From the UHGV virus genome UHGV-0378206: a stretch of 34,503 nucleotides of DNA, one strand, 5' to 3'. This DNA comes from a virus. The notes beneath the pieces are model-generated. The model made no database searches and had not been told where the DNA came from. It saw only the letters and a list, made by a program, of their open reading frames with translations. This document shows, one piece after another, positions 1 through 19,439 of the stretch. The translations under genes were made by a program, and so were the position numbers. The first letter of the stretch is position 1. Each line of letters begins with the position of its first letter.

Positions 1-86
1 ATCATTGAGTTATAGCCATTTTATGGCATGTTTAATGATATTGTAGTAAAATTCACCCATAAATAGTTAACGTTAAGGAGGTACAT

Positions 87-563
87 ATGTTTTCCAAAGA
101 AAAAGTTAGCGATATTTTATTTGCGAATGGTTTTGAGATAAAAAATCAAAGTAATATAGGTGACTCATATACGTTTGATTTAGGTAATGAATGGCAAGTC
201 TCTGTATTTTGTCCTTTTGTTGGGAATGTGTTTGAAGGAAATGTGGATAAATTAAATTATGAGGCAATAAGTGCGTCTTTATTTGATTGTATTGGTACAA
301 AATTTAAATTTAAAAACGTAGTTTCATTAGAAGCTAATATTAAAAGAGTACTCAGAATACTAAAAGAAAACTCTGATGATGATGAGATTTTAAAGTGTGA
401 AAAATGTGGTGTAAGATACGTGCAACCTAAAGAACCTACATTTGGTAAAAAATGGAAGCCATTCCTCTCTTGTAGTGGAATGATAATTAAAGGAACAGGT
501 AAAAACAAAGGGATTCTTTGTGATGGGACATCTAAAAAATTACCGGCAGTAGTTTTGCTATAA
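87..563 (+). CDS. hypothetical protein with C-terminal Cys-rich (zinc-ribbon-like) motif
   Basis: 158-aa ORF with a strong RBS ('aaggagg' about 7 nt upstream of ATG); C-terminal 'CEKCG...CSG...C' pattern; no catalytic motif recognised by eye. Confidence 0.5.
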   Translation: MFSKEKVSDILFANGFEIKNQSNIGDSYTFDLGNEWQVSVFCPFVGNVFEGNVDKLNYEAISASLFDCIGTKFKFKNVVSLEANIKRVLRILKENSDDDEILKCEKCGVRYVQPKEPTFGKKWKPFLSCSGMIIKGTGKNKGILCDGTSKKLPAVVLL

Positions 564-586
564 ATTTAAATATTTGTTTTTATAGT

Positions 587-1117
587 GTGGCAAGGAAAAA
601 CATGTTCGATTTTCTTATGATTAACTCTGAGTATGTGTCTATTGTCGGTGCGGTTTTAGCTTTTGTGGGCACAATTGTACTCGCTTTTTCTATGGGAAAA
701 GTATTGTGGGAATTCATGTTCTCAATTGACGCGATATCTACCAGTATTGAAAGTATAGCAGACGGGGGCGATATTTACGTCTTTCAAGGACTTCATGAAA
801 GAATATCAAAAGCTATTTCTTCATCCAAAAAGCCCACTTGGATTGGGATAATATTAGTATTTATATCAATGCTAATGCAAGGTTATTCTTTATATCTAAG
901 TTTTGAAAGTAATAAAATAAATTCGATGAAGTACGAAAATAGAATAAATGAAGTTCATGACGAAATTACTGAAACAAAAAATACACTGAACATATTAAAC
1001 AGTAAGTTGTTAGCTAAAATTGATGAAAAACAGTTCCAAATAGATGAGCTTAAACGTATTCAGAGAGAACAAAATGAAAGTTTACGGAGCATTATTAAAA
1101 AACAGAAAAAGAATTAA
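587..1117 (+). CDS. hypothetical membrane protein with C-terminal coiled-coil
   Basis: ORF with two hydrophobic helices ('VSIVGAVLAFVGTIVLAF', 'WIGIILVFISMLMQGY') then a charged, heptad-like C-terminus; start is GTG at 587 or ATG at 602 (RBS 'aagga'). Confidence 0.45.
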   Translation: MARKNMFDFLMINSEYVSIVGAVLAFVGTIVLAFSMGKVLWEFMFSIDAISTSIESIADGGDIYVFQGLHERISKAISSSKKPTWIGIILVFISMLMQGYSLYLSFESNKINSMKYENRINEVHDEITETKNTLNILNSKLLAKIDEKQFQIDELKRIQREQNESLRSIIKKQKKN

Positions 1118-1165
1118 TAAATTTAGATGTTGATTTTTTCAACCGTAGGGCAGAAAAAACAAGGC

Positions 1166-1194
1166 AACAAATAGAAGCTCGGCTTCTATTTGTT
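1166..1194 (+). terminator. candidate stem-loop terminator downstream of 587..1117 gene
   Basis: 12-bp perfect inverted repeat 'acaaatagaag'/'cttctatttgt' with a 5-nt loop; weak U-tract, so intrinsic-terminator status is uncertain. Confidence 0.3.
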
Positions 1195-1281
1195 AGCTCT
1201 TGCTCTTCAATTATGAATTAAAAATTTGATATTTAATTATTTTGATGATAACAATGAAGAAATATAAAAAGAGGAGGTGTT

Positions 1282-1479
1282 ATGAAAGCAGTTTATTTAT
1301 TTGGGGTGATTTTTTTAATAATTGATTTGTTGCTTGGTTTTTATATTTTTGATAAAGGCGGGACCGATGCAGCTATCAAATCTGGGCTAATGGGGAATCT
1401 GTCGGTATGTATTATTTTTATGACTGTGGGAGTGTATGTGCCGGTACTTATCTGGTCACTTGCAGAAAGGAAAAAATAG
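1282..1479 (+). CDS. small hydrophobic (membrane) protein, 65 aa
   Basis: Strong RBS 'agaggagg' upstream of ATG; two hydrophobic segments; function unknown. Confidence 0.4.
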   Translation: MKAVYLFGVIFLIIDLLLGFYIFDKGGTDAAIKSGLMGNLSVCIIFMTVGVYVPVLIWSLAERKK

Positions 1480-1518
1480 CTATTAATACAACTCGAATAT
1501 AATAGCTATTACCGGAAC

Positions 1519-2058
1519 TTATTTCTTTATCGAGATCTCTATTTTATTATCCTTTTCGACCAAGGCATATATATCTTTGCTATCCAATGAGCGAATGGAG
1601 ATATACGTGTGGTCATCTGGCTTTTGTTTTACACAGATGACCGGGGCTTCATTTTCGGGATTGGCCAACTTGCTGTATTCATTGGAAAATTCCTTTAGAC
1701 TAATTAATAATTTTATCACTCCAGACAAGCTTACCATTGTAAGGAATAGATAACCCCAGACACTGGAGAAAATATTAGCAAATGTAAGGTTAGAATTAAT
1801 ATTCGAGATGCAATATATATAATATGCATAACTTATTAGAGAGAATAAACTGAGCAACGAATCTACAGACTTTTTTAAAACTTCACTGTAGATATTATGT
1901 GAGAAGAAAAATATAATACCACCGCAAAACAATGGAATTATAAGCAGTATCAATGTCAGGGCCCAATTGTGGTTGTTACCATATATGTAAAGGGAGATGA
2001 AGCATGTAAATGTAGTTAACAATGCGACCAATTTACTGAGAGTAGGATTATTTATCAC
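1519..2058 (-). CDS. multi-pass membrane protein (about 4 TM helices) with short soluble C-terminal domain
   Basis: 179-aa ORF, RBS 'aggag' 7 nt upstream of ATG; hydrophobic stretches through the first ~110 aa; same strand as and downstream of the SIR2-like gene. Confidence 0.5.
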   Translation of the reverse strand: MINNPTLSKLVALLTTFTCFISLYIYGNNHNWALTLILLIIPLFCGGIIFFFSHNIYSEVLKKSVDSLLSLFSLISYAYYIYCISNINSNLTFANIFSSVWGYLFLTMVSLSGVIKLLISLKEFSNEYSKLANPENEAPVICVKQKPDDHTYISIRSLDSKDIYALVEKDNKIEISIKK

Positions 2059-2279
2059 TTGAAACTCCTGTTAAAAACTTCGGTTTTAATTGTCAATAAT
2101 AGATCATATGCTGTAGTTGATATAGTCATATAAACATAACAGTCTTCTGTATGATGTGCTGTTTTTATCTTTGCAGTTTAATAAGTAAATTTTTATTTGT
2201 TCTGAGGGGATTCTATTCTCATAATAACTATGGAAAATGCAATCATCTTTTTTAGATAAAGGGATTGTTAAGTCTTCAA

Positions 2280-3602
2280 TTATTTCCTCTGTAGATAAAT
2301 GAATGTTTTACAGTTATTATTAGAGGTTCTTTCAAAATGATCAGCAAGTTTATTTATTTGCTGATCTTTATACATTTCTATATTGTCAAGTTCAGGACAG
2401 ATTTCACTGAACGCAAAGATTGGAAAGAACTGGGAACTCTGTATCTTCTGTTTATTTAATAATATAATTAATTGCTTATTTGCTTCCTCTACAATCTTGA
2501 AATAATCTTGCATCATTTCAGGCTTGGTTTGAAACTCATACTTAACTCGTTTATGAGAACCTACGGCTAATACCATTTGTCCATTTTTTAACTGGTCTAA
2601 ATCTTCTGTGATTTTTACTTCAATTTCACCACCGCTTTTTATTTCATTCCAGACTTTTTGAACTTTTCTAATATCCATTGCTGAAACTGGTAATATTAAG
2701 TCTGATAAACTTTTATATATAGAAGAGTAATCGTCGGTTTTGATTTTATTTATTCTTATAGTGGTAGCATTCCCTATGTATATATCGTGTTCAGATATGG
2801 CAGTAGATCTTGAATCTTTTTCATATTCCACAAGCAAAAAATTACTTCTAATTTTATTTGCTATATCTGAGTTAGTAGGTACATAGGAAAAAATGGTCTT
2901 TAGAATTTGCTGTATGTTTCTGTCACTAATGCTGTATCCAATAAAGATAACAGGATTATGAATAAATAGTGAGAGTAATTGTGCTCTAATTAGTTCATAT
3001 TTGTTATCGAAATAGTCATAATCTTGTTCTGTAATCGTTAGTTCGTAAGGGGCTGACACACAACCATGTATTTTATAGACAGAACCATAAGGATTACTTA
3101 AAAGTATGCTATTGCCTATTAGTGGTTCAAATTCAAAGAGTTGCTCAATCAATAAATCATAGTTCGTTGTGATGATTGATCCGATGTTTTTTCTCATCTT
3201 AATGAGTTCAGCTATCTCTTCGCTTTTTTCTTCTTTTAATTCTACAGTTGATAATAGCTGAGTAATATATATTTTAAATCTGCTTAAATTAATTCCCTTA
3301 TCCATCTCTTTATAGAAAATATCATTTATTTCTTTAAACTTTCCATTTCTATCGTTAGACAAAGTTTCATTGAATTTTCTTTCTATATCACTGGCAATTT
3401 TATCATATTTATATTCACCATTGATTTGACATTTTGATTTAATATCAAGATATGTTTCTTTATCACCAGTGAGTTCGAAACAAATATATGAGAGTAAACC
3501 ATTCCAATCATAGGAATTAGAGAGATATCGCAAGCTAAACCCAGTTCCGATGAAGAGCACTGGATGATTTCGATACTTTGCTATGAATTCATTAATTTCC
3601 AT
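2280..3602 (-). CDS. SIR2-like (SIR2_2-type) domain protein, probable NAD+-consuming defence effector
   Basis: Ordered motifs in the N-terminal ~230 aa: 'PVLFIGTGFS' (GxGxS), 'IITTNYDLL' (TTNYD), 'YKIHGC' (KxHG), 'VIFIGYSISD' (GYSxxD); C-terminal ~200 aa unassigned. Confidence 0.75.
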   Translation of the reverse strand: MEINEFIAKYRNHPVLFIGTGFSLRYLSNSYDWNGLLSYICFELTGDKETYLDIKSKCQINGEYKYDKIASDIERKFNETLSNDRNGKFKEINDIFYKEMDKGINLSRFKIYITQLLSTVELKEEKSEEIAELIKMRKNIGSIITTNYDLLIEQLFEFEPLIGNSILLSNPYGSVYKIHGCVSAPYELTITEQDYDYFDNKYELIRAQLLSLFIHNPVIFIGYSISDRNIQQILKTIFSYVPTNSDIANKIRSNFLLVEYEKDSRSTAISEHDIYIGNATTIRINKIKTDDYSSIYKSLSDLILPVSAMDIRKVQKVWNEIKSGGEIEVKITEDLDQLKNGQMVLAVGSHKRVKYEFQTKPEMMQDYFKIVEEANKQLIILLNKQKIQSSQFFPIFAFSEICPELDNIEMYKDQQINKLADHFERTSNNNCKTFIYLQRK

Positions 3603-3812
3603 ATCTCACCATAACTTGTTGATTTTATGTGCTTTAATGTGTTACTGTTGACGTATTAAGGTATATCTAACATACATTATTATTCTTTATGCCAGTTGTC
3701 TAGCATATAGTCATAACTCTTTAAGCCAAAAAATTGTCTGTTCGCGCTTTGTCCGTAGTACATGTGTATACTAACATGTATTAGATTTTTCATTATACGT
3801 TTGGTGTAATTA

Positions 3813-4577
3813 ATGCTGAAAATTAACAAATGTCCACTTTGCCGTAAAAATAATGAACTTGTCCATAGCCATTTGATTTCTAAGTTTGTTTATAAAATTA
3901 TTCGCGAATGTCAGCCATATGAGAAAATAAACGAATGTTCTCCAATGATTGTTGATAGCCGTTTAGGTCTTCTACAGAAATCAACACGTCAAGAAAAACA
4001 AATTCTCCTTTGTTCTGCATGTGAAGAGTTATTTTCTGAAAAAGAAACTGCGATGGCGAAAATTATTCGTGAACTGCAAAGAACAGATGTGAGGCAGAAA
4101 AAGATATTAGCATACCAAAAGGAACTGTGTAGCAAATTAAATGGTCAAGACATTCTTTATTTTACAGATGAAAAAGTCTCTACAATTAAATATTTTGCTA
4201 TGTTGAATTTATTTAGAAATATAGTGTGCGAGAGAGTGCCTCGCATAGTAAGAAAAGAGTTAATTAAGATTAGAAAATATCTTCTACGCGAATCTGATTA
4301 TTCTTTGCCATTAATCATTCATGTTAACGACAGTGATTTTTTCCCCATAGCCTCAACTCCATTCAAAATTGATTCTGATAATTGCTATCATTATATTTTT
4401 TTAATTCCTGAGTTTTTATTTCATTTCTTCTTTTGTATGTCACAACTAAACTTGCAGTTTAATGACGTAATGATTATGCCAGAACATCTTTCTTCAAAAG
4501 AAGAAGTGGAAATTCACCTTAGGAACTCAATGAAAGACATTCGCATTGCTAATAATGCAAAGAAATATATAAAATGA
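3813..4577 (+). CDS. hypothetical protein with N-terminal Cys/His cluster
   Basis: 254-aa ORF; 'CPLC...HSH...CSAC' suggests a zinc-binding module; remainder unrecognised; weak RBS. Confidence 0.45.
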   Translation: MLKINKCPLCRKNNELVHSHLISKFVYKIIRECQPYEKINECSPMIVDSRLGLLQKSTRQEKQILLCSACEELFSEKETAMAKIIRELQRTDVRQKKILAYQKELCSKLNGQDILYFTDEKVSTIKYFAMLNLFRNIVCERVPRIVRKELIKIRKYLLRESDYSLPLIIHVNDSDFFPIASTPFKIDSDNCYHYIFLIPEFLFHFFFCMSQLNLQFNDVMIMPEHLSSKEEVEIHLRNSMKDIRIANNAKKYIK

Positions 4578-4625
4578 TTAGCTTTTGATGGACTTCGAGT
4601 GACTTGGCAAATAAGTACGTATTGG

Positions 4626-4916
4626 TTATTTTTTGAGGCATTTAATAGCATAATGAAAAGAAATGTCCTCTAATCCAGTTTTTGTTTTCAAATAAAAACA
4701 TCTGGTGCCGTGTAGTGATCTACCTGCAGTGATTCCTATGCATTCATTCTTACTTTTTTCTTCCCACTCATCGTGGTTTTTAAATAATTCGATCAAAAAA
4801 TTATAATCACTAATGCTCACTTCTTGATGGTCTTTGGTTTTGTTTAGAATGCTTTGTGCCTGACTGATTATATCTTTCTTAGTAGCATAAATAATATTGT
4901 TGATAGTGTATGACAT
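4626..4916 (-). CDS. hypothetical protein, 96 aa
   Basis: ORF with RBS 'agga' upstream of ATG; no recognisable motif. Confidence 0.4.
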   Translation of the reverse strand: MSYTINNIIYATKKDIISQAQSILNKTKDHQEVSISDYNFLIELFKNHDEWEEKSKNECIGITAGRSLHGTRCFYLKTKTGLEDISFHYAIKCLKK

Positions 4917-5115
4917 GTTTTTTCCTATTGTTAGATAACATCGATTTTCTTACCTAATTAGGCATGAGATATTAAATTGTAACATATTTAATTGATAGTG
5001 CTTTCTGGAATCAGATTTTTGAAAGTTTAAAATGTTTTTCAGTTCTATTATTGTAAATAATAAAAACGTATCCTTAACAGAACAGTATGGAATTTCTAAA
5101 AAATCTATAATCATA

Positions 5116-5165
5116 AATTAATTCACTGAAGTTTTGACTGCTAAAATTACTTCAGTGAATTAATT
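5116..5165. repeat. 17-bp perfect inverted repeat (hairpin) just 3' of the 5189..6328 gene
   Basis: 'aattaattcactgaagt' (5116..5132) and its exact reverse complement 'acttcagtgaattaatt' (5149..5165) with a 16-nt loop; likely operon terminator or regulatory/recombination site. Confidence 0.5.
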
Positions 5166-5188
5166 ATGAATGGAAATTTGCTTTGTAG

Positions 5189-6328
5189 TTAGTTTTGTTT
5201 TTGATAGTCTCTTTGATGTTGAAGAATCAATTCAAATTCTCTAACTTCTGCAACTATATGAGTTACATGATGTGTCGTGTCTATTGATACCCAATTCGTA
5301 GTATTACCAACAAATTCTTCATTGGCACATTCATAAATCTTTTTATCACCCCAGCTAAATTTCTCACCTTTATAATGGGGGGATGAAACCAGTATCTTAC
5401 ACAAATCTTGCATTTGTGCTCCCTTTTTACCGGTAGCACGAGAATACCCTCTTACAACGAAAAGGCTATCGTCTATAGTATATCTAATCTTACCGTTAGC
5501 ATCGGGTGCAATGATGTCATCTCCGATAGAGGGATTAACGATACCATAATCTCCAAATACTAAATTTAAATCAGGTTGGAATTTTTTGAATGCTTTCCAT
5601 ACCTTAGCTTCTTTACGGATAACTATACCTTCTGAATTGTGGGTAGGAACCATTCCATTAATATCACTTGTTATTGAACTTCCTGCAATTGAAATAAATT
5701 TAAAATCATACTTGTATAATGAATCCAGTGCTCTCTGCACTGTTTCATTTAGGTCAACTATGGATGTTTTAGTTATATCTTCTAAATCTATCATTACCGA
5801 GCAATTTTCTGGCATTGCACCCAAGGAAGTTAAAATGCCTTCTATTGTTTCAATAAACGGTTCCTCTTCGATCATATCTTCAAAAGCAAAGGAGTTTAAC
5901 CGAATTACAAAGTCAGTATAGCTTGTACCTAATTGTTGCAAAGTAGTTGCATACTCATCATCTTCCCATCGATCATAACCGACGACAGGAATGATATTGC
6001 ACCCAGCATTTCTTAAGGCACTGGTGAGATGACTCAAAATATGCTCTCCTGTTTCAAGAGAAGAGTTTGGAGGCCATCTGCTTATATCAATCCCCATGGG
6101 GAGATTTTGCATCCTTTCGGACAATGTTTTAATTGTATTGTTTAGAAAAAACTCAACTGGATTACCTATGTTAGAGTATTTTTTATTTGTTCTCTGCTTT
6201 TTCGACAGATATGGGATTTCAAAAATCGGAAGCATGTCCCTCATAACGTGGGGATAAGGAAGCATAGACTTAATGGCATCTAACTCACCTTTCTTAGCTT
6301 TTAAAATCGGCATATATTTAGGGTACAT
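5189..6328 (-). CDS. hypothetical protein (379 aa), third gene of the HigB/HigA-ImmA operon
   Basis: ORF starts 14 nt after the stop of the upstream gene, RBS 'gaggtg'; N-terminus 'MYPKYMPILKAKKGELDAIKSM'; no catalytic motif recognised by eye. Confidence 0.6.
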   Translation of the reverse strand: MYPKYMPILKAKKGELDAIKSMLPYPHVMRDMLPIFEIPYLSKKQRTNKKYSNIGNPVEFFLNNTIKTLSERMQNLPMGIDISRWPPNSSLETGEHILSHLTSALRNAGCNIIPVVGYDRWEDDEYATTLQQLGTSYTDFVIRLNSFAFEDMIEEEPFIETIEGILTSLGAMPENCSVMIDLEDITKTSIVDLNETVQRALDSLYKYDFKFISIAGSSITSDINGMVPTHNSEGIVIRKEAKVWKAFKKFQPDLNLVFGDYGIVNPSIGDDIIAPDANGKIRYTIDDSLFVVRGYSRATGKKGAQMQDLCKILVSSPHYKGEKFSWGDKKIYECANEEFVGNTTNWVSIDTTHHVTHIVAEVREFELILQHQRDYQKQN

Positions 6329-6341
6329 ATAGACACCTCGT

Positions 6342-7571
6342 CTACCAAATATGATTAGGGAAATGCTTTCTTACTTCACCTTGACCAACTAAATCAGAAA
6401 ATTGATTGTATTTTCCAGTTTCTCTTCTAATTCTTCCTGCGATTATTGCAGGATGAATTCTTAATTCTCTTGAAAGCTCATCTATCGTGAATGTGCTGGG
6501 ATTTAAGTAAGCTGAACTCCGTTTCCAAATGACGCGAGGAATGAGAGTATCTCTGGCTATTCGATTAGCCTCTGCTTCCATTTTGTCTGTACTATTCTTG
6601 AGTGTTTCAATGTCATCGATAAATGTGTTAGTAGAATCTGCATGTTTCCAGATATGGACTAACTCATGTAAAAGTGTAAACCAGAAATTATCCAAACGAT
6701 CTTGTCTTAAAGTGAGTGCAATAATTGGTCTACCGTCAATATCCCTCAGAGCAGCCCCATCAACAGCAGTACCAGTCAGACAAGGTTCAATGATCACACA
6801 AATCCCATTTTTTTCTAAGAACTCCACCGCTAATAGAGGTCCATATTCGGACCAACTTAAATGTGCGATCTCTTTTAAAAAATCTTTAGTTATGCAATCT
6901 TGCTTAAATTTAGTTGCGAGTTTTTTTTCCCTGGCTTTCTGGACTACTCTTGCAATCCATGCATGTAATTTATAAACAGTTGTAGGTGAGTAAGACTCTC
7001 CGTTAAGTGTTCGCTTGAAGGCTGCTGTAGAAAAATTCGCACCCAAACCCTCAATGAAATTTTTGACTTTTTCTTCTGTAGTCGTTTTTGTTTGCGAGAC
7101 AATGTTTTCTATCCAACCTTTGGAAAGCATTTCTTTTATAGGAAATTTTGACCAATTAACCTCCTCAACTGGAGAACGATTTGCATATCCAGTTTCTGTT
7201 TCTAAGCCCAATAATGTTTGAGGAGACATACCTAAACCTATTGATAAGGCTTTGATCATAGCGACGGTTAAAGGACGTTTTCCCGATAACACCTCTGATA
7301 CACGACTTTTTGTTCCAAAATATGGGGTGAGATCCGCTTGGCGTAAGCCCTGTTCGTCCATTCGGAATTTGATTGCCTCGATTGGATCTACCGGTGTTAC
7401 TGGATAGTTAGCATTTTCATAATTTTCAATAACAACTGTAAGTAAATCAAGACGTTCTGATTCTTCAGATCCTGCAGGAAGATCCAATCTGAGTAATCTC
7501 TCAACTTCTGAAAGGGCCGCATGATATTGTTCTTCAGTTCGAATAACCCGAACTTCAGTAAGTTTACTCAT
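6342..7571 (-). CDS. HigA-like HTH antitoxin domain fused to ImmA/IrrE-type zinc metallopeptidase domain
   Basis: N-terminal region resembles HigA-type HTH antitoxins ('GTKSRVSEVLSGKRPLTVAMIKALSIGLGMSPQTL'); C-terminal half has HEXXH 'LLHELVHIW'; start overlaps upstream stop as ATGA. Confidence 0.7.
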   Translation of the reverse strand: MSKLTEVRVIRTEEQYHAALSEVERLLRLDLPAGSEESERLDLLTVVIENYENANYPVTPVDPIEAIKFRMDEQGLRQADLTPYFGTKSRVSEVLSGKRPLTVAMIKALSIGLGMSPQTLLGLETETGYANRSPVEEVNWSKFPIKEMLSKGWIENIVSQTKTTTEEKVKNFIEGLGANFSTAAFKRTLNGESYSPTTVYKLHAWIARVVQKAREKKLATKFKQDCITKDFLKEIAHLSWSEYGPLLAVEFLEKNGICVIIEPCLTGTAVDGAALRDIDGRPIIALTLRQDRLDNFWFTLLHELVHIWKHADSTNTFIDDIETLKNSTDKMEAEANRIARDTLIPRVIWKRSSAYLNPSTFTIDELSRELRIHPAIIAGRIRRETGKYNQFSDLVGQGEVRKHFPNHIW

Positions 7572-7831
7572 TTAGATACCACCTGGTTAATCACCGCAAT
7601 GCTCCTTTCAAACTGAAATGTTACTTTTATGCCCTGCGATTTAATGCCTCGAACAAAGAACACATAGCACAAATTATCAATCTGCTGTGCTCTGGGGAAA
7701 GCATCTAAAACTCCCTTAGCATCTTTCCAGTAAGCGTTAGTGAGCTCTGCAACCCAAGCGGAAAGCCAAACATCCGTTTCAGGGTTAGTACCACTTAGCA
7801 CTTGAAGCCTTTGCTTGCCGATTAGTCGCAT
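7568..7831 (-). CDS. higB: HigB-family (RelE/ParE-fold) toxin-like protein
   Basis: About 87 aa from the internal ATG with RBS 'ggaga' (ORF extends to 7882); sequence pattern resembles E. coli-type HigB; toxin-upstream-of-antitoxin order as in higBA. Confidence 0.55.
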   Translation of the reverse strand: MRLIGKQRLQVLSGTNPETDVWLSAWVAELTNAYWKDAKGVLDAFPRAQQIDNLCYVFFVRGIKSQGIKVTFQFERSIAVINQVVSK

Positions 7832-8037
7832 TGATGTTCTCCATTTGGGAACCAGAATAAGTGTGGTGATTCTGAATGTCAATACAATGTTCCCATAAGT
7901 GGAACTTGTCGCCTCCAGTTCTCATCTCTTTATGGCTACATAACTCTAAGAATCAATGGAAAGCTCTTTAATAAGAATAAAAATATGATTTAGATCAAAT
8001 GTATATCGGCGTGCCGGGATGCTTATAGTGGGGCGAT

Positions 8038-9267
8038 TTAGGCCGCAATCGCTTTTAGCTTTTGAGCCTGAACATAGTTACTCCACCACTGCATGAGAAC
8101 CACTCGTTCTGCAAGATAATCTGCGCGATTATATGCGGCAATTATTTCATCTTTCTTCGAGTGAGCAAGGGCCGCTTCTAAGACATCTGTCCTGAACTTA
8201 CCCGACTCCTCTGAGGCCGTTCGTGCAATAGATCTCATTCCATGGGCTACAAGCTCTCCACCAAAGCCCATACGGATTATGGCCGCATTCGCTGTTTGTT
8301 CATGCATATGATTGAGTGGAGCTTTGATACTGGGGAAAACCCACTCTCTGTGCCCACTGATGGCTTTCATTGAATCCAAGACTCGCAAAGCTTCTTTGCT
8401 TAGTGGAACTTTGTGAGGCTTCTTCATTTTCATAAACTCAGCCGGGATGTTCCACATCGAGTTGTCAGTATCTATATCGGCCCATCTCGCACGAACGGCT
8501 TCCCCTGGACGAACCCAGGTCAGCAATTGCCATTCAATCAGCAATCTTGTCTCCATACGAACTGAGGCATTGTTTAACACCATTAGGAAGCGGGGTAACT
8601 CGGAAGGGGGTAATGCTGGCATATTCTGTTTTTTAGGCTTACTGAACCGTTGCCCAAGGTTGTCAGCCGGATTGAACTCGATAAGTTCTTCAGTCGCGGC
8701 CCAGCGAAAAATTTCATTTAATCGGGAAATGATTCGCCGTAAGGTTTCGAGGACTCCTCGTTGTTCAATAGGGTCGAGATGTTGCTTTAAGAGTTTGGGT
8801 CGGATCTCATTGATAGGAACCTTACCCAAGCCGGGAAATATATTTCTCTCCAAGCTTCGCCAGATGTCTTCTGCATGGTCTTGTGAGATACCAGAGGTCT
8901 TTACCTTCTCATCCAACCATTTCCTTGCCACGGCTTGGAGAGTGTGTTCAGTAGCATTCTTTAAGGCATTAGCTTTATCGTTGTTATGAACTTGGGGATC
9001 AATGCCATTAGCAAGCAAGGAAAGGTATTCATCTCGTAAGGCTCTGGCTCTTGCCAGTGTAAGGTGAGGATAGGTCCCAAGGCTCATTTTGGTTCTTTTT
9101 TTACTCACTGGCACTGCATACCTGAAATACCAATTCTTCTTTCCTCCTTTCGAGAGGGGAGCGATTCGTAGTATCAAACCATCTCCGTCAAACAAGTTGA
9201 TTTCTTTGTCGGCTGGCTTGGTGCTTTTGATTTCAGTGTCAGTGAGCTTCTTAGCGATTTTTGCCAT
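8038..9267 (-). CDS. intA: tyrosine integrase, IntA/P4 family (CP4-57-like)
   Basis: 'DIWRSLERNIFP' and C-terminal 'HGMRSIARTA...LAHS...AYNR' are integrase catalytic-domain features; sits next to the ssrA 3' fragment as in CP4-57; start at ATG 9267 (RBS 'gaggg'), alternative ATG at 9309. Confidence 0.85.
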   Translation of the reverse strand: MAKIAKKLTDTEIKSTKPADKEINLFDGDGLILRIAPLSKGGKKNWYFRYAVPVSKKRTKMSLGTYPHLTLARARALRDEYLSLLANGIDPQVHNNDKANALKNATEHTLQAVARKWLDEKVKTSGISQDHAEDIWRSLERNIFPGLGKVPINEIRPKLLKQHLDPIEQRGVLETLRRIISRLNEIFRWAATEELIEFNPADNLGQRFSKPKKQNMPALPPSELPRFLMVLNNASVRMETRLLIEWQLLTWVRPGEAVRARWADIDTDNSMWNIPAEFMKMKKPHKVPLSKEALRVLDSMKAISGHREWVFPSIKAPLNHMHEQTANAAIIRMGFGGELVAHGMRSIARTASEESGKFRTDVLEAALAHSKKDEIIAAYNRADYLAERVVLMQWWSNYVQAQKLKAIAA

Positions 9268-9364
9268 TTTGGGACCCTCGGTTTTTGGACCCTTCTTAGT
9301 GGGTCCCATTCAGGGTGCCATATGTGATAGTTCTCAGCAATTCTCACTGGACGACAATAGACGT

Positions 9365-9397
9365 AAAAAAGCCCGCAGAGCTTATGCTATGCGGGCT
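9365..9397 (-). terminator. intrinsic terminator downstream of the ssrA 3' fragment
   Basis: On the minus strand a GC stem 'gcccgca...tgcgggc' is followed by a run of six U. Confidence 0.6.
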
Positions 9398-9432
9398 TAG
9401 TAGACTTCATTGTACTTCAAACAACTAAAAAG

Positions 9433-9477
9433 TGGTGGAGCTGGCGGGAGTTGAACCCGCGTCCGAAATTCCTACAT
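9433..9477 (-). other. ssrA: 45-nt 3' end of tmRNA gene ssrA (att core / direct repeat); not an intact tmRNA gene
   Basis: Reverse complement reads 'atgtaggaatttcggacgcgggttcaactcccgccagctccacca', the acceptor/T-arm 3' terminus of enterobacterial tmRNA; flanking sequence does not continue into the tmRNA body. Confidence 0.8.
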
Positions 9478-9603: not shown

Positions 9604-10617
9604 TTACGGTTGGCTGTTTTTAACATTCAAAAGAAAGTTCTTCCAAATTATTTGCAGTGAATTTTTATCTAAATCAATCTTATGAGGTTTGATGTTTTTT
9701 CCTTCATATATATTTTTGTAATAGCAATCGATAGCAAAATGAATAGTTAAATTATCTGGATGTATGGCTAGTAGACCTCGGTCAAGCAAGGCATGAAGGG
9801 TAGGTTCAAGAGGTATTCCATTGTTGGTTCTATGGTTTTGGGTCTGAGAAAATGGTTCAAGGTGACATGCCTGCAATACTGGGAGGTTGTAACCTGTTAT
9901 TGCGCATACATTTGAGAAGTTTTTTAGAACCCTTTTTTTAAAGTCAACCTGTTCGCCAGAGTCACGCTGTAATACTGTTTGCAGATGAGTATTGCCTTTT
10001 GTGACAACTGGTATACTAATTGTATCAGAGGGATTTATAAATATGACTGGCGGTAGAGTAGGTTCTAGAATGTTTTTTTGTCCAAGAAACTGCCTTGATA
10101 ATAATTCATCTTTAGCGATTTTTATTGCTTCACTTTTTGTTAATGAAAGGCATGCCAGATTATACGCATCTACATTGAAATATTTAGTTTCCCTGTTTAG
10201 CGTAATGGATGATATTTTTTTATCGTGTTCTGCTATTGGTATACCTTTTGTGACAGGATGCGAAATGCTTTCAAGCAGTGTTGTATTGCCATTTATTTCT
10301 TTATTAAACAATGAGGTAGGGTGTTCAATCATATTGCTATGCTTGGCGCGATAGTGCTCATATAGGCCATGAGCACTTTTGAAATTTTTCTTGCATATTA
10401 TACAGCTAACATTTCCTCCATTAATTTTTTTTGAATTTCTTTTTCTGGATTCAACAAGAGAGTTTGTTAGATCTTCTCTTAGTTTTAATATTCTGAGGTT
10501 GGTTGGGTTGTTTCCTCGTCTATATGGTAAGCTCTCAAGTCTATTTAACTCATTTTTGAGGTGTTGGTACTGTTTACGTGAAATTAAATTAGGTTTCATA
10601 TTTAAGATTAAGATCAC
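9604..10617 (-). CDS. C2H2 zinc-finger plus HNH_2-type nuclease domain protein (prophage cargo between att and int)
   Basis: 'CIICKKNFKSAHGLYEHYRAKH' (C2H2 finger); C-terminal 'CAITGYNLPVLQACHLEP...NNGIPLEPTLHALLDRGLLAIH' matches the HNH_2 signature; gene is AT-rich unlike the adjacent int. Confidence 0.65.
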   Translation of the reverse strand: MILILNMKPNLISRKQYQHLKNELNRLESLPYRRGNNPTNLRILKLREDLTNSLVESRKRNSKKINGGNVSCIICKKNFKSAHGLYEHYRAKHSNMIEHPTSLFNKEINGNTTLLESISHPVTKGIPIAEHDKKISSITLNRETKYFNVDAYNLACLSLTKSEAIKIAKDELLSRQFLGQKNILEPTLPPVIFINPSDTISIPVVTKGNTHLQTVLQRDSGEQVDFKKRVLKNFSNVCAITGYNLPVLQACHLEPFSQTQNHRTNNGIPLEPTLHALLDRGLLAIHPDNLTIHFAIDCYYKNIYEGKNIKPHKIDLDKNSLQIIWKNFLLNVKNSQP

Positions 10618-10639: not shown

Positions 10640-11671
10640 TTACATGTTATTCGACAAGTATATAAAGTTCAAAGGGTTTTTCGTTACTGCATCTTCCAGA
10701 TGGTCTGGAGAAAAATGGGCGTAAATCATCGTCATTTTTATATCGGCATGGCCCAAAATATCGCGCAGTACCAGTATGTTTCCGCCGTTCATCATGAAAT
10801 GGCTGGCGAATGTATGGCGTAGAACGTGGGTGCATTGTCCCTCTGGCAGTTCAATACCAGCTCGTTTTACTGCCCGTTCAAAGGCTTTTCTGCATGGGGT
10901 GAATAGCCTTCCTCTGTTTTTAGGGAGTTCGTTGTAAAGATCCTGAGATATTGGCACGGTACGGTTTTTCTTGCCCTTCGTCTTGGTATAAGTGATGCGG
11001 TATTTGGATAACTGATGGCCCTGCAGATTTTCTGCTTCACTCCACCGTGCGCCAGTAGCTAGGCATATTTTTGCAATCATTAGTAAGCTAGGGCTTTGAG
11101 ATTCAGCACATGCCGCCAACAGGCGCTTGATTTCGTCCGTGGAAAGAAAAGCCAGCTCACCTTCGGCAATTTTGAAGGTCGGAAGTCCTGCCAGCGGGTT
11201 TGGTGCTGACCAGTGTCCTAGTTTTTTTAATGTACCGAACACCGATGATAGATTGCGCTGTTCAAGGTTTACCGTGCGGGGCTTAACGGGCGACATAAGC
11301 GTGCCATCTTCATTTCGTATTTCACCTTTTAACCGTGCTTCGCGGTATTTCGTAAAGTCTCCGGCTGTCAGCTCAGAGGCGATGGGGTCGCCTAGACCAT
11401 TACAGATAATTCTAAGTTTCGCCATGAGGCGCTTGGGGTCTGCGAGTGTCTGACCATACAGGGAATACCAAAGCTCAATTAATTCTGATAGGCGTCGCCG
11501 ATCATCCTTTTCACCCAACCACGGTTTTTTATTCACTTCTTCCATTGTGAAGCTTTCAAACGCAATGGCTTCGCCTTTCGTGGCAAATTGCTTACGCACG
11601 CGCTTGCCATTGCGTCCATTGGGATAGCACTCACACAACCATTTTCCGTTCGGCTGTTTTCTGATGGTCAT
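10640..11671 (-). CDS. int: P2-type tyrosine integrase
   Basis: 'GRNGKR', 'RRLSEL', 'TGARWSEA', 'RTVPIS', 'HVLRHTFASHFMMNGG', 'LGH...MTMIYAHFSPDHLEDAV' match P2 Int signature blocks. Confidence 0.9.
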   Translation of the reverse strand: MTIRKQPNGKWLCECYPNGRNGKRVRKQFATKGEAIAFESFTMEEVNKKPWLGEKDDRRRLSELIELWYSLYGQTLADPKRLMAKLRIICNGLGDPIASELTAGDFTKYREARLKGEIRNEDGTLMSPVKPRTVNLEQRNLSSVFGTLKKLGHWSAPNPLAGLPTFKIAEGELAFLSTDEIKRLLAACAESQSPSLLMIAKICLATGARWSEAENLQGHQLSKYRITYTKTKGKKNRTVPISQDLYNELPKNRGRLFTPCRKAFERAVKRAGIELPEGQCTHVLRHTFASHFMMNGGNILVLRDILGHADIKMTMIYAHFSPDHLEDAVTKNPLNFIYLSNNM

Positions 11672-11672
11672 A

Positions 11673-12305
11673 TCAAAGGCTCTTAATGATTTTCAGTGCG
11701 CGGCCTACTACCTCAATGTCATCCAGATCGCACTCAAACGATGAATCATCCTGATGCACTACTAATTTGTTTCCCGGGAGTCGAGTCAATTTAACGATGC
11801 TTTTTATCCCGTCGATATCGACTAACCACATACCATTTACTGGTGGTGTTTGGTTGCGATCTATTAAATAAGAATCACCAGAAGTAGTCACCAGCAGTAG
11901 GTTGCTTGAGTCTGAGGGGAGTATGCTGCTATCAATGATTGCTTTTCCAGCATCGACCAATAAACCACCGTTGAGAGTCGCCTTGTCAATTTCAGGAGAT
12001 ACTAGTTCAGAAAGAGGTACAACCTTGCTGGAGTTCACGGAATTGATATTTTTTTTAGGTTCAATGTTTGGACCTGGATCCCCCTGTCCGGTGGTTAGCC
12101 ACAGTAAAGAAACTCCTGTTTCCAAGGCGCACTGAATCACCCACTCTGCAGGGAAACTATCTCTTAAGTATCTGTTTGCCATGGTGCTTTTTGATGCGCC
12201 TAAGTGATCGCAAAGTTGCTGTCTGGACTTGAAATCATAGGCTGCCATTAGTCTATGGATAGCCTCTCTTCCCCCTGTATTCTCTCCAACCTTTACCTGT
12301 ATCAT
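11673..12305 (-). CDS. cI: 186-type CI immunity repressor
   Basis: N-terminal HTH ('QCALETGVSLLWLTTGQG') and C-terminal 'WLVDIDGIKSIVKLTRLPGNKL...FECDLDDIEVVGR' resemble coliphage 186 CI; divergent from the cox/apl-like gene. Confidence 0.7.
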   Translation of the reverse strand: MIQVKVGENTGGREAIHRLMAAYDFKSRQQLCDHLGASKSTMANRYLRDSFPAEWVIQCALETGVSLLWLTTGQGDPGPNIEPKKNINSVNSSKVVPLSELVSPEIDKATLNGGLLVDAGKAIIDSSILPSDSSNLLLVTTSGDSYLIDRNQTPPVNGMWLVDIDGIKSIVKLTRLPGNKLVVHQDDSSFECDLDDIEVVGRALKIIKSL

Positions 12306-15095: not shown

Positions 15096-16102
15096 ATGCT
15101 ATCGATCCGCGTTGCTTTGCCTCAGGCACAATTAACGTCATCACTACTTCTGGTGGCAAAGATAGTCTCGCTCAATGGCTAAGAGCCATTGAAAACGATG
15201 TTCCGCATATTTCTGTATTTGCCGATACGGGTCATGAACATCCACAGACAATAGAATATCTGGATTATCTGGAATCAAAGCTGGGCAAGATTATTCGCGT
15301 CAAAGCGGATTTCACACGCCAGATAGAAGGGAAACGTAAATTCATTGCGGAAAAGTGGCCCATTTCTCTCGTTGAGGAATGTGGTATGTCGACAGATGAG
15401 GCTGAGGAACGTATTTACCGGGCACTGGAAATCCTTAAACCAACCGGCGTTCCGTTTCTTGATTTGTGCATGTGGAAAGGTCGCTTCCCTTCAACAAAAG
15501 CTCGTTTCTGCACTTTTGAACTGAAACATGAACCAATACGTACACAGGTAATCGATCCAGCTCTGGATGAATACGATGAGGTAATAAGCTGGCAAGGAGT
15601 CCGGGGGCAGGAATCACCGGAACGTGCATTGTTGCCTGAGTGGGAGGACGATGCAGACAATACTCTGGGGCTGCATGTTTATCGTCCGATCCTTAATTGG
15701 CTGCATGAGGATGTGTTTGCTATTGCCAAACGTCATGGCATTAAGCCTAACCCCCTTTATATGCAGGGATGCAGTCGTGTCGGTTGTATGCCATGCATTC
15801 ATGCTCGCAAGTCAGAACTTGGAGAGATTTTCCAACGCTGGCCAGAAGAAATCCGCCGAGTGGCTGAGTGGGAAAGACTGGTTGCGGAATGTTCAAGACG
15901 TGGCAATTCAACGTTCTTTCAATCCACGCATGATCCGCGCCGTGCTGAAAAACGGATCGAAGTCATAACTGTTGATGCTTATGGCATTGAAACTTATCGG
16001 GACTGGGCCTTAACGACTCGGGGCGGTATGCAGTTTGACCTGCTGGCAGGCATGAATGATAAAGCGGTGTGCAGCAGTGTATATGCAGGAGTCTGTGAGT
16101 GA
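15092..16102 (+). CDS. PAPS-reductase-like (PP-loop ATP pyrophosphatase family) protein
   Basis: PP-loop 'TSGGKDS' near N-terminus; Cys cluster '[13 protein letters not shown]'; translationally coupled to dam and gene A. Confidence 0.7.
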
Positions 16103-18540
16103 CAGAGATCAGCACAGGCCGTCTTGCCGATCCATTTGTCAGTGTAACTTCCGGTAGCATTGAGAATTCTGCCGGGGGTTATTCGTGGAATTTACCTAAG
16201 AAAGCCATTAACCCTTATCTGGACCCGGCGGAAGTTGCGCCGGTTTCTGCGCTTTCAAACCTGATCACTCTGTACGCTACCGATAACGAGCAGGAACAAC
16301 TGCGCCGCGAGGCACTGAGTGATCAGGTCTGGGAGCGTTATTTCTTTAATGAATCCCGTGATCCTGTCCAGCGCGAAATGGAGCAGGATAAGCTCATTAG
16401 CCGGGCAAAGTTGGCGCATGAGCAGCAGCGTTTTAACCCGGACATGGTCATTCTGGCAGACGTCAGCGCCCAGCCCTCCCATATCAGCAAGCCGCTGATG
16501 CAACGTATTGAATACTTCAGCAGCCTGGGCAGGCCAAAGGCTTATTCCCGCTATTTACGTGAGACGATTAAGCCATGTCTGGAACGACTGGAGCATGTAC
16601 GCGACAGCCAGCTATCTGCATCTTTTCGTTTTATGGCAAGCCATGTAGGGCTGGACGGCCTGCTGATTCTGCCTGAAATGAGTCAGGATCAGGTGAAACG
16701 CCTGTCTACCCTTGTCGCTGCGCATATGAGTATGTGCCTTGATGCAGCTTGTGGTGATTTGTATGCCACCGATGACGTTAAGCCAGAAGAAATCCGCAAG
16801 ACATGGGAAAAGGTGGCAGCGGAAACCCTGCGTCTGGATGTCATCCCGCCTGCGTTTGAGCAACTCCGTCGGAAAAGAAACCGCCGTAAACCCGTGCCCT
16901 ATGAACTCATTCCGGGTTCGCTGGCGCGTATGTTGTGCGCCGACTGGTGGTACCGGAAATTATGGAAAATGCGTTGCGAATGGCGGGAAGAGCAGTTGCG
17001 TGCTGTCTGCCTGGTCAGCAAAAAAGCATCTCCCTATGTCAGCTATGAAGCCGTGATGCATAAACGTGAGCAGCGCCGCAAGTCACTGGAGTTTTTCCGT
17101 TCTCATGAACTGGTGAACGAAGAGGGCGACACGCTGGATATGGAAGACGTGGTAAACGCCAGCAGCAGCAACCCGGCGCACCGCCGCAATGAGATGATGG
17201 CCTGTGTTAAAGGTCTGGAGCTTATCGCGGAAATGCGCGGTGACTGCGCCGTTTTCTACACCATTACCTGTCCGTCACGTTTCCATTCTACGCTCAATAA
17301 CGGCAGACCAAACCCAACCTGGACAAATGCGACGGTAAGACAAAGCAGCGATTATCTGGTCGGCATGTTTGCTGCATTTCGTAAGGCGATGCACAAAGCC
17401 GGGTTGCGCTGGTATGGCGTGCGGGTGGCTGAGCCGCATCATGACGGTACAGTTCACTGGCACCTGTTGTGTTTCATGCGCAAAAAAGACCGCCGCGCCA
17501 TTACTGCATTGTTGCGTAAGTTTGCCATCCGTGAAGACCGCGAGGAACTGGGTAATAACACTGGTCCACGCTTTAAATCTGAGCTGATAAACCCGCGCAA
17601 AGGAACGCCGACAAGCTACATCGCGAAATACATCAGTAAGAACATTGACGGGCGTGGTCTGGCTGGCGAGATCAGCAAGGAAACGGGTAAATCCCTGCGT
17701 GATAACGCTGAATACGTTAATGCCTGGGCGTCTCTGCATCGTGTACAGCAATTCCGCTTCTTTGGTATTCCGGGACGTCAGGCTTACCGTGAACTTCGCT
17801 TGCTGGCTGGTCAGGCGGCAAGGCAACAAGGTGACAAAAAAGCAGGTGCGCCGGTACTGGATAACCCGCGTCTTGATGCCATTCTGGCTGCTGCTGATGC
17901 TGGTTGTTTTGCCACCTACATCATGAAGCAGGGCGGCGTACTGGTCCCCCGCAAATATCACCTCATCAGAACCGCTTATGAAATCAACGAAGAGCCAACC
18001 GCCTATGGCGATCACGGTATTCGTATTTATGGCATCTGGTCACCCATTGCAGAGGGCAAGATCTGCACTCATGCAGTGAAGTGGAAAATGGTTCGTAAGG
18101 CCGTTGACGTTCAGGAGGCGGCAGCCGACCAGGGCGCTTGCGCCCCTTGGACTCGTGGCAATAACTGTCCCCTTGCTGAAAATTTGAACCAACAGGAGAA
18201 AGATAAATCAGCTGATGGGGACCCCAGAACGGACATTACCAGCATGGATGACAAGGAGTTGCACGATTACCTGCACAGTATGAGCAAAAAAGAGCGCCGG
18301 GAACTGGCAGCAAGGTTACGCCTGGTGAAACCGAAACGGCGTAAAGACTACAAACAGCGAATTACAGACCATCAGCGACTGCAGCTCGTGTATGAGCTGA
18401 AGTCCAGAGGATTTGATGGCAGCGAGAAAGAGGTCGATTTACTCCTTCGCGGAGGCAGTATTCCGTCAGGAGCAGGCCTGCGTATCTTCTATCGGAACCA
18501 GCGTTTGCAGGAAGATGATCAGTGGCGGAACCTGTATTAA
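16099..18540 (+). CDS. A: replication initiation endonuclease (P2 gpA family, rolling-circle HUH)
   Basis: 813-aa ORF with '[13 protein letters not shown]' HUH-type motif and conserved Tyr-containing region; position and size match P2 A. Confidence 0.85.
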
Positions 18541-19349: not shown

Positions 19350-19439
19350 CGCGCGTTGCAAACCATGTCGATGCTGTTATCATTTGCAGCAAGTTTTCAA
19401 AGTGCTAAAGCATTCTTTAATTCCAAGGTAGGTATAGAT

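Follow-up and report, generated by a model that had tools for sequence, protein, structure and literature searches.

The stretch of DNA analyzed here, 34,503 nucleotides (nt) of the UHGV virus genome UHGV-0378206 (the window), carries on its minus strand a compact three-gene operon that almost certainly belongs, judging from its proteins and gene order, to PD-λ-2, a family of anti-phage systems that have three genes and act by abortive infection. The genes encode a relative of the toxin HigB (gene A), a HigA-like helix-turn-helix (HTH) domain fused to an M78 peptidase (gene B), and a Beta family protein (gene C). We are fairly confident of the explanation as a whole, which joins this identity to a working model of how the three products act on one another. 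The genes are located as follows:

Gene A: positions 7568 to 7831, minus strand; ATG at 7831 to TGA at 7568, 87 amino acids (aa); HigB-derived, PD-Lambda-2_A.
Gene B: positions 6342 to 7571, minus strand; ATG at 7571 to TAG at 6342, 409 aa; HigA-like HTH plus M78 peptidase, PD-Lambda-2_B.
Gene C: positions 5189 to 6328, minus strand; ATG at 6328 to 5189, 379 aa; Beta family (PF14350), PD-Lambda-2_C.

Each of the three proteins gives a full-length match to the corresponding hidden Markov model of PADLOC, with E values of 5.3e-29 for A (PDLC03978, PD-Lambda-2_A; residues 1 to 85 of 87), 9.3e-178 for B (PD-Lambda-2_B; residues 6 to 406 of 409), and 5e-156 for C (PD-Lambda-2_C; residues 1 to 373 of 379). 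The genes are adjacent and co-oriented in the order A-B-C, as in PD-λ-2. A first-pass annotation of this DNA, made from the sequence alone, had proposed a profile search of all three products; in addition to the PADLOC models, this search returned HigB_toxin for A (below its gathering threshold), HTH_3 and Peptidase_M78 for B, and Beta_protein for C. The operon is also present in the chromosome of Escherichia coli 2021CK-01361 (100% identical, with one single-nucleotide polymorphism), where RefSeq names A a “HigB family toxin,” B an “ImmA/IrrE family metallo-endopeptidase,” and C a “beta family protein.”

PD-λ-2 is already a known system, found by functional selection for phage resistance in E. 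coli ECOR42 (Vassallo et al. 2022, Nat Microbiol, PMC9519451) and described there as a HigB-like first gene, a fusion of a HigA-like Xre HTH with a peptidase, and, third, a relative of a P4 “antitoxin.” In ECOR42 it defends against λvir through abortive infection; overexpressed B is toxic and A rescues the cells, while C is not needed for this neutralization but is needed for defense (PMC9519451). The published behavior of this orthologue is in line with the suggestion in the first-pass annotation that the operon may be triggered by phage and not be a simple addiction module (PMC9519451). The toxicity and defense results apply to the orthologue only, and the copy in the window is distinct from it. 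When the gene-specific cloning primers for ECOR42 (Table S8) were compared with the window and with the loci collected below, they had no match in the window but fit two other loci, L031 from Salmonella enterica subsp. arizonae and L108 from a gut metagenome, with 0 to 2 mismatches each. On this comparison, the window operon is a divergent orthologue. With L031 taken as a proxy for the ECOR42 proteins, identity to the window proteins is 30% for A, 57% for B, and 39% for C. We also considered whether the window proteins might be the ECOR42 proteins themselves and rejected this, since the RCO9335x accessions are not among the cluster members listed and the primers match only L031 and L108. The two operons share the HigB-like gene, the fusion of HigA-type HTH and M78 peptidase, and the PF14350 gene in a common order, along with an equally degenerate A; the upstream operator motif described below is also found in L031. 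They differ at the A-B junction, which in ECOR42 appears from the primers to be an 11-nt overlap with a GTG start, whereas in the window it is ATGA.

The layout of the operon as three translationally coupled minus-strand genes, described in the first-pass annotation, was confirmed (7568-7831, 6342-7571, and 5189-6328). Genes A and B do overlap by 4 nt as ATGA, and C follows B after a short spacer with a ribosome-binding site, as had been claimed; the spacer is 13 nt long (6329 to 6341) and has GAGGTG inside it. The operon had also been given an upper limit of 7882. Its tightly packed genes were borne out, but this limit was not: a longer mechanically called open reading frame (ORF) opens with TTG at 7882, where a TTGACA −35 box begins. 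As this TTG lies in the −35 box, and as the ATG at 7831 has a GGAG Shine-Dalgarno sequence ahead of it, the latter is the start of gene A and the longer TTG-initiated ORF is an artifact.

The A-B-C operon is conserved, on the homologues collected, across Proteobacteria and beyond. A genome scan seeded with C recovered 79 loci, spread over Gamma-, Beta-, and Alphaproteobacteria and a small number of other phyla, and 76 of them have A, B, and C in one order and on one strand; two of the others end at a contig edge, and in one (L077) A was not detected by tblastn. A metagenome scan seeded with B recovered 80 loci, with A-B-C in 69, ten that end at a contig edge, and one (L158) that is truly a two-gene locus. 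Thus, 12 of the 14 exceptions overall are cuts at contig ends, and the arrangement is far beyond chance. Loss of the third gene from homologous operons was what the first-pass annotation had named as the outcome that would count against its three-gene reading; instead, C is nearly always present, with A-B-C complete in 76/79 and 69/80 loci. Among the loci, A and B mostly overlap, and the B-C junction ranges from a 4-nt overlap to a 20-nt gap. B is the slowest-evolving component, with identities across loci of 54 to 68% where those of C are 33 to 56% and those of A 27 to 49%; its mean column identity is 68%.

The variant found in the window is rare in E. coli. Among 5426 complete genomes, 3 have it at a DNA identity of 97% or higher and five more have a less similar version; at the sensitivity of blastn, both counts are lower bounds. 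Protein clusters at 90% identity reach Klebsiella, Salmonella, Enterobacter, Citrobacter, and Yersinia. In E. coli AREA_C483 (L164), the A-B-C cassette is present at 97% DNA identity in an unrelated context, with homology stopping at window position 5199, which shows that the cassette moves independently of the ssrA-linked island that holds it in the window (see below). The neighbors of the AREA_C483 cassette are a DUF6119 gene, a His-Xaa-Ser (Hxs) radical-SAM system disrupted by IS3, and an integrase remnant.

Gene A had been called HigB-like, and its homology to HigB is clear from profile comparisons, although the residues expected of an active toxin are gone. Comparison with Pfam HigB_toxin (PF09907) yields 24.6 bits (E = 3e-5), below the gathering threshold of 27, and a profile of PD-λ-2-type A proteins aligns weakly with HigB structures 5ifg and 5ycl in the PDB (E = 1e-3; residues 1 to 84 on 1 to 86 of 104). 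Stronger evidence comes from relatives of the system that retain canonical HigB proteins. A sister clade in the metagenome set (L150-L158) has B at 46 to 49% identity to that of the window, partnered by a canonical 94-aa HigB with GNxYR and GTHAEY, and two plasmid-borne two-gene modules (L166 and L167) likewise pair a B-like protein with a canonical 94-aa HigB. These canonical partners match PF09907 in 8/8 cases, with E values down to 4e-30, and HHalign relates them to the PD-λ-2-type A group with 99.4% probability (E = 1e-21). The alignment stops at column 85 of 95, ahead of the invariant H86-A87-x-Y89 of the canonical proteins, and nothing conserved in A corresponds to the canonical invariants N59, G62, N63, and R66, which belong to the motif “FNVKGNxYR.” The pattern H-x-[ED]-Y occurs in none of the PD-λ-2-type A proteins (0/77 in the C-seeded set and 0/69 in the B-seeded set) but in seven of the eight canonical partners of the sister clade, the eighth having SHAQY. 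In the window, both GNxYR and the C-terminal THxEY are absent from A, which ends before the position of THxEY, and the ECOR42-like A of L031 is degenerate in like manner. The conserved residues that remain in A are W22, W26, E29, and W35.

That GNxYR and THxEY are catalytic in HigB is suggested by their invariance and by general knowledge of the RelE superfamily; the literature searched on catalytic residues of PF09907 HigB yielded no test of these motifs in this subfamily. With the motifs lost, A is probably not an RNase and is probably instead an inhibitor, that is, an antitoxin, of B. The toxin and antitoxin roles assigned to A and B in the first-pass annotation are therefore probably reversed, as they are in the tested orthologue, where B is toxic and A rescues. 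A as a degenerate, noncatalytic descendant of HigB would explain this published “reversed” toxicity. Compared with HigB-HigA of K-12/Shigella (5ifg, 5ycl, and 6kml), the operon likewise has its toxin-like gene first, a homologue of HigB in A, and palindromes at the promoter. Unlike K-12 HigB, the window A lacks GNxYR, THxEY, and the C-terminal 10 to 18 residues; furthermore, PD-λ-2 adds a third gene to the K-12 arrangement, and in the tested orthologue the toxicity lies in B.

A classical arrangement would have A as an active HigB-type ribosome-dependent RNase and B as an antitoxin that destroys itself via its own protease on a signal, freeing A, with C as an accessory. The descent of A from HigB is genuine, and the gene that follows it encodes a HigA-like protein, as in higBA. 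A comparable organization was also foreseen by Makarova, Wolf, and Koonin, who in 2009 predicted “three-component” toxin-antitoxin systems consisting of Xre-COG2856 fusions with RelE or PIN toxins (PMC2701414). These resemble PD-λ-2 in placing a RelE-superfamily gene upstream of an Xre-COG2856 (HTH plus Zn-peptidase) fusion, but they do not include a Beta protein, and the RelE-like protein was taken to be the toxin. We consider this arrangement improbable for the window operon: the toxicity pattern of the tested PD-λ-2 is the opposite, its A (represented by L031) is as degenerate as that of the window, and all PD-λ-2-type A proteins, including that of the window, end before THxEY and lack the conserved Arg. 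It may hold for the relatives in the sister clade L150-L158 and on the plasmids of L166 and L167, where a B-like protein is paired with a canonical HigB.

Gene B encodes a protein in which a helical region lies between an HTH domain and a peptidase domain, with the following features:

HigA-like HTH N-domain of B: about aa 8 to 122 (nt 7206 to 7550), minus strand; assigned from HigA homology.
M78 peptidase domain of B: about aa 229 to 385 (nt 6417 to 6887), minus strand; Pfam Peptidase_M78.
HEXXH of B: aa 302 to 306 (nt 6654 to 6668), minus strand; within “LLHELVHIW” (aa 300 to 308), with H302, E303, and H306.

This composition, a HigA-like HTH joined to a HEXXH-containing domain, is as the first-pass annotation had proposed. 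The N-domain aligns with HigA of K-12/Shigella (5ycl and 5ifg) at E = 2e-9, residues 8 to 122 on 21 to 137 of 138, and Foldseek places it with HigA structures 6jq4 and 6kml at 36% identity; for the C-terminal domain, Foldseek returns PprI/IrrE and CapP. Pfam assigns Peptidase_M78 at 33.5 bits (GA of 22), plus HTH_3. Since H302, E303, and H306, together with E332 and E334 downstream, are invariant in 40 homologues, the peptidase site is intact. The AlphaFold2 model of B is of moderate quality (mean predicted local distance difference test score of 77), with low-confidence linkers at 125 to 136 and 179 to 196. The designation of B as a HigA antitoxin was not upheld: at 409 aa with a fused peptidase, it is no small stand-alone protein, and the roles are reversed in the orthologue. 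Its N-terminal 120 residues are homologous to the entire K-12 HigA (~36% identity), but compared with HigA proteins of about 100 to 140 aa it is extended by about 290 residues bearing the M78 peptidase. Overall, B is probably both the effector, or toxin, and the autorepressor of the operon.

Some peptidases of the M78 family cleave XRE-family repressors, as in ImmA/ImmR of ICEBs1, IrrE(PprI)/DdrO of Deinococcus, and CapP/CapH of cyclic-oligonucleotide-based anti-phage signaling systems (CBASS). B resembles ImmA, IrrE, and CapP in its Peptidase_M78 domain with HEXXH and a downstream Glu, in its structure (for PprI/IrrE and CapP), and in its association with an XRE-type HTH. By analogy, the fused HigA-like HTH is a candidate substrate of the B peptidase. 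Unlike in ImmA/ImmR, IrrE/DdrO, and CapP/CapH, however, the HTH is HigA-like and fused and no separate repressor is encoded, and the partners in PD-λ-2 are instead a HigB relic and a predicted TIM-barrel protein.

Upstream of gene A, a predicted promoter is bracketed by two palindromes, an arrangement that is an addition of the present analysis:

Promoter (predicted, σ70-like): positions 7854 to 7882, minus strand; −35 TTGACA at 7882 to 7877, 17-nt spacer, −10 TATTCT at 7859 to 7854.
Operator O1 (putative): positions 7889 to 7905, no strand assigned; perfect palindrome GTTCC-ACTTATG-GGAAC, 7 nt upstream of the −35 box.
Operator O2 (putative): positions 7836 to 7852, no strand assigned; GTTCC-CAAATGG-AGAAC, 1 mismatch, starting 1 nt after the −10 box.

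The promoter matches the consensus at 10 of 12 positions and is the best site of the region, a consensus match only. The probable start of transcription and the GGAG ribosome-binding site ahead of A both fall within O2. Both palindromes are versions of a 17-bp motif, GTTCC-N7-GGAAC, with the consensus GTTCCCAnATTGGGAAC. With at most one mismatch allowed, the motif occurs 6.73 times per kb upstream of A versus 0.078 times per kb elsewhere in those loci, an 86-fold difference, and its occurrences cluster at two fixed positions before the start of A, −70 to −90 and −20 to −35. At least one site is found in 50/76 loci and both in 37; the O2 sequence recurs at −21 in L002-L007, with related sites at −21 to −35 in most loci. 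The B-seeded loci and the sister clade with canonical HigB have the palindrome as well. A scan flagged O1 (7889-7905) as terminator-like, and we reread it as an operator given that the palindrome is conserved there in many loci. O1 is probably the binding site of the B HTH, and autorepression by this highly conserved HTH would be the obvious reading of the operators.

Gene C had been left as a 379-aa protein of unknown function, but it belongs to the Beta family, PF14350 (E = 5.5e-65; residues 5 to 359 on 1 to 341 of the 342 profile positions), which is named after beta of phage P4. Its predicted structure is a confident TIM-barrel model. The invariant polar residues of C (D81, R143, D181, S218, R238/E240, D260, K280/R282, D350, and H353/H354) sit at or just after predicted β-strands, at or near the C-terminal strand ends. 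Catalytic sites of TIM barrels usually lie on this face, which suggests that C may be an enzyme or a ligand binder. A search of the PDB for sequence relatives of C found none, and BFVD holds one other member of the Beta family, from Gordonia phage Powerball. The family comprises about 3500 clusters at 50% identity (3537 representatives); no domain fusions were seen in the best 150 of the 3537 representatives, which are single-domain proteins or shorter fragments of at most 411 aa. The literature searched on the mechanism of Beta proteins yielded nothing usable.

The P4 protein belongs to gop-β-cII, a gene set reportedly described by Ghisotti in 1990. An alignment of C (aa 162 to 379) with P4 beta covers 229 residues at 24% identity, and C matches the PADLOC model “beta” at E = 2e-8. 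The P4 system is toxin-antitoxin-like and protects against λ and P1 (Rousset et al. 2022, PMC9122126); Beta suppresses the toxicity of Gop (PMC9122126), and the system is triggered by phage orf184 (bioRxiv 10.1101/2023.04.06.535777). PD-λ-2 and gop-β-cII are therefore alike in having a PF14350 protein, in being toxin-antitoxin-like, and, for the tested PD-λ-2, in protecting against λ. They differ in that Beta neutralizes Gop in P4, whereas C is not needed for neutralization in the tested PD-λ-2. Neither gop nor cII/sce7726 had a tblastn match in the window, and none of the neighboring ORFs matched the NCBIfam sce7726 model.

Several loci connect the two systems. Six viral contigs from IMG/VR (L177, L178, L179, L192, L193, and L197) carry an M78 peptidase that lacks an HTH and matches B at about residues 165 to 402, followed by a Beta gene and a convergent sce7726 gene; sce7726 (NF033832) is the family of P4 cII. 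In five of these six loci the peptidase gene is preceded by a GNAT-like gene, and in L179, the one locus inspected in detail, an HTH-like ORF stands ahead of the peptidase. The sce7726 proteins show a D...E-x-K pattern (“ADVV...YEIKGETD”) that, judged by eye, resembles the PD-(D/E)xK nuclease motif. We saw no PADLOC name for the M78 peptidase-Beta-sce7726 module. Within the sister clade, L150, L151, L153-L155, and L157 have Beta, and L154 combines a canonical HigB, B, Beta, and a convergent sce7726. Two-gene pairs of HigB with a HigA-M78 fusion and no Beta are found in L158 and on plasmids of Limnohabitans and Acinetobacter, beside other toxin-antitoxin modules. A Paraburkholderia plasmid (L165) has a degenerate HigB and no Beta gene. 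The link between peptidase and Beta is thus independent of HigB/HigA, and these intermediates (the six M78-Beta-sce7726 loci and L154) indicate that PD-λ-2 and gop-β-cII share a Beta-centered core with exchangeable partners. A statement of this link was not found in the literature searched.

The constancy of Beta in both P4 gop-β-cII and the peptidase-Beta-sce7726 modules bears on a further possibility, modeled on ImmA and IrrE, in which the B protease would cut only its own or its partner's HTH, the operon would be derepressed, and arrest would be caused by C or by a high dose of B. This would fit the likeness of the B peptidase to PprI/IrrE and CapP, which are repressor-cleaving proteases, and the conserved operators, which indicate tight autorepression; C, moreover, is required for defense in the orthologue and looks enzyme-like. 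However, toxicity of C has not been reported, P4 Beta suppresses the toxicity of Gop rather than killing, and B of the orthologue is toxic alone, without C. Derepression of this kind is therefore an unlikely account of the arrest, although we give it somewhat more weight than an active HigB in A.

In our working model, the σ70-like promoter between the two palindromes would be repressed by the operon's own product, with the HigA-like HTH of B binding there. Overlapping or closely spaced genes would then couple the translation of A, B, and C. A, as a HigB descendant that has lost its motifs, would dock on the N-domain of B as HigB does on HigA and keep B inactive. We favor these three steps together, with some reservation. 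The later steps are more tentative, and taken together we regard them as rather less likely to be right than wrong: upon infection, C may sense or process a phage-dependent cue and lift the inhibition, and the M78 zinc peptidase of B may then cut one or more of A, its own linker, and proteins of the host or the phage, such that growth stops before phage release. The docking of A on B, the binding at the operators, the sensing role of C, and the action of the protease as the killer are our inferences.

A broader and more speculative reading is that PD-λ-2 and gop-β-cII are versions of one larger, unrecognized class of defense systems. Its core would be the Beta TIM barrel, often accompanied by an M78 peptidase and/or sce7726 (possibly PD-(D/E)xK-like), with the barrel reading or making a small-molecule or phage-derived cue by which the protease is activated. 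Within PD-λ-2, HigB would have become a dead “pseudo-toxin,” the antitoxin of a former antitoxin. We regard this as possible but doubtful.

The genomic setting identifies the operon as cargo of an integrase-bearing genomic island. Positions 1 to 9477 of the window are 99.7% identical to an ssrA-linked island of E. coli 2021CK-01361, and the operon directly adjoins the P4-type integrase of the island (8038 to 9309). This position beside an integrase would be in keeping with a plain addiction or stabilization module of the island having no role in phage defense in this host, as would the occurrence of two-gene HigB plus HigA-M78 relatives on plasmids beside other toxin-antitoxin modules. Against such a role, the orthologue came from a functional selection for resistance to phage and acts by abortive infection, the strictly conserved third gene is dispensable for neutralization, which is unexpected of an addiction module, and the neighbors in the island include other defense candidates (SIR2/PDC-S25 and DUF3223). 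We therefore consider it very improbable that the operon serves stabilization alone.

An inverted repeat lies beyond gene C:

Inverted repeat: positions 5116 to 5165, minus strand; perfect 17-nt arms at 5116 to 5132 and 5149 to 5165, 16-nt loop, 24 nt past the stop of C.

The operon had been said to end in a perfect 17-bp hairpin, and the arms are indeed 100% complementary. The RNA fold is −24 kcal/mol (z = −5.4 versus shuffles), but the hairpin is AT-rich and large-looped, has no run of T next to it, and was not among the calls of the terminator scan. It is possibly a weak terminator. As a part of the system itself, it was rejected: it is not conserved with the cassette and lies outside the region shared with AREA_C483, in which homology ends at 5199.

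Several neighboring genes in the island were also characterized. A gene for a SIR2-like protein (2280 to 3602, minus strand) matches the PADLOC candidate PDC-S25 (E = 2e-149, profile positions 13 to 441 of 517). Because a 1-bp deletion at about 2306 cuts its C terminus, leaving 440 aa versus the 499 aa of the RefSeq gene in 2021CK-01361, the copy in the window is probably a pseudogene. A SIR2 gene of 59% identity is also adjacent to the operon in three loci with divergent PD-λ-2, namely L019 (Enterobacter), L033 (Buttiauxella), and L161 (E. coli C), bringing this co-location to 4 of about 160 loci. A DUF3223 (HamC-like) ORF of 96 aa (4626 to 4916, minus strand) lies 270 nt downstream of C; relative to the 137-aa RefSeq gene there are 13-bp and 1-bp insertions, and one of the two copies is frameshifted. 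A convergent ORF of 254 aa (3813 to 4577, plus strand) has a CxxC-containing N terminus and no Pfam, NCBIfam, or PADLOC match; we considered it as a possible cII/sce7726 homologue and rejected this, as neither Pfam, NCBIfam, nor tblastn supported it.

Most of the remainder of the window (9450 to 34400) is a P2-like (Peduovirus) prophage, closest to Klebsiella phage Kp4849-2 (95.6% identity across 80% of the prophage), and it includes an integrase (10640 to 11671) and a CI repressor (11673 to 12305). A scan of the window for transfer RNA and transfer-messenger RNA genes found none; the ssrA attachment seen in 2021CK-01361 is displaced in the window by this prophage. Between the integrases of the island and of the prophage lies a gene for an HNH endonuclease (HNH_2; 9604 to 10617, minus strand); in other E. 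coli genomes, such as strain 600468, the corresponding slot holds an “anti-phage dCTP deaminase,” which suggests that this end of the prophage is a variable cargo site. The prophage also encodes a 674-aa OLD-family protein (19356 to 21380, plus strand) that combines an AAA_15/AAA_21 ATPase with an OLD-like TOPRIM and gives weak PADLOC matches to AriA, Old, and AbiL. Its gene sits between an 813-aa ORF (16099 to 18540), probably the replication endonuclease gene, and a 343-aa ORF (21406 to 22437), probably the portal gene, which is the position of the old/tin defense hotspot of P2.

As a discovery, the operon matters little, since PD-λ-2 is published, PADLOC has models for it, and RefSeq names its genes. 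It still merits a note for what it offers on the mechanism of PD-λ-2: the degenerate A, the two-operator promoter, the differing evolutionary rates of B, A, and C, and the pairing of M78 with Beta provide handles that could guide mutagenesis and the hunt for the trigger. The fast divergence of A and C is as would be expected if both face the phage, and the conserved two-operator promoter predicts that the system is autoregulated by B.

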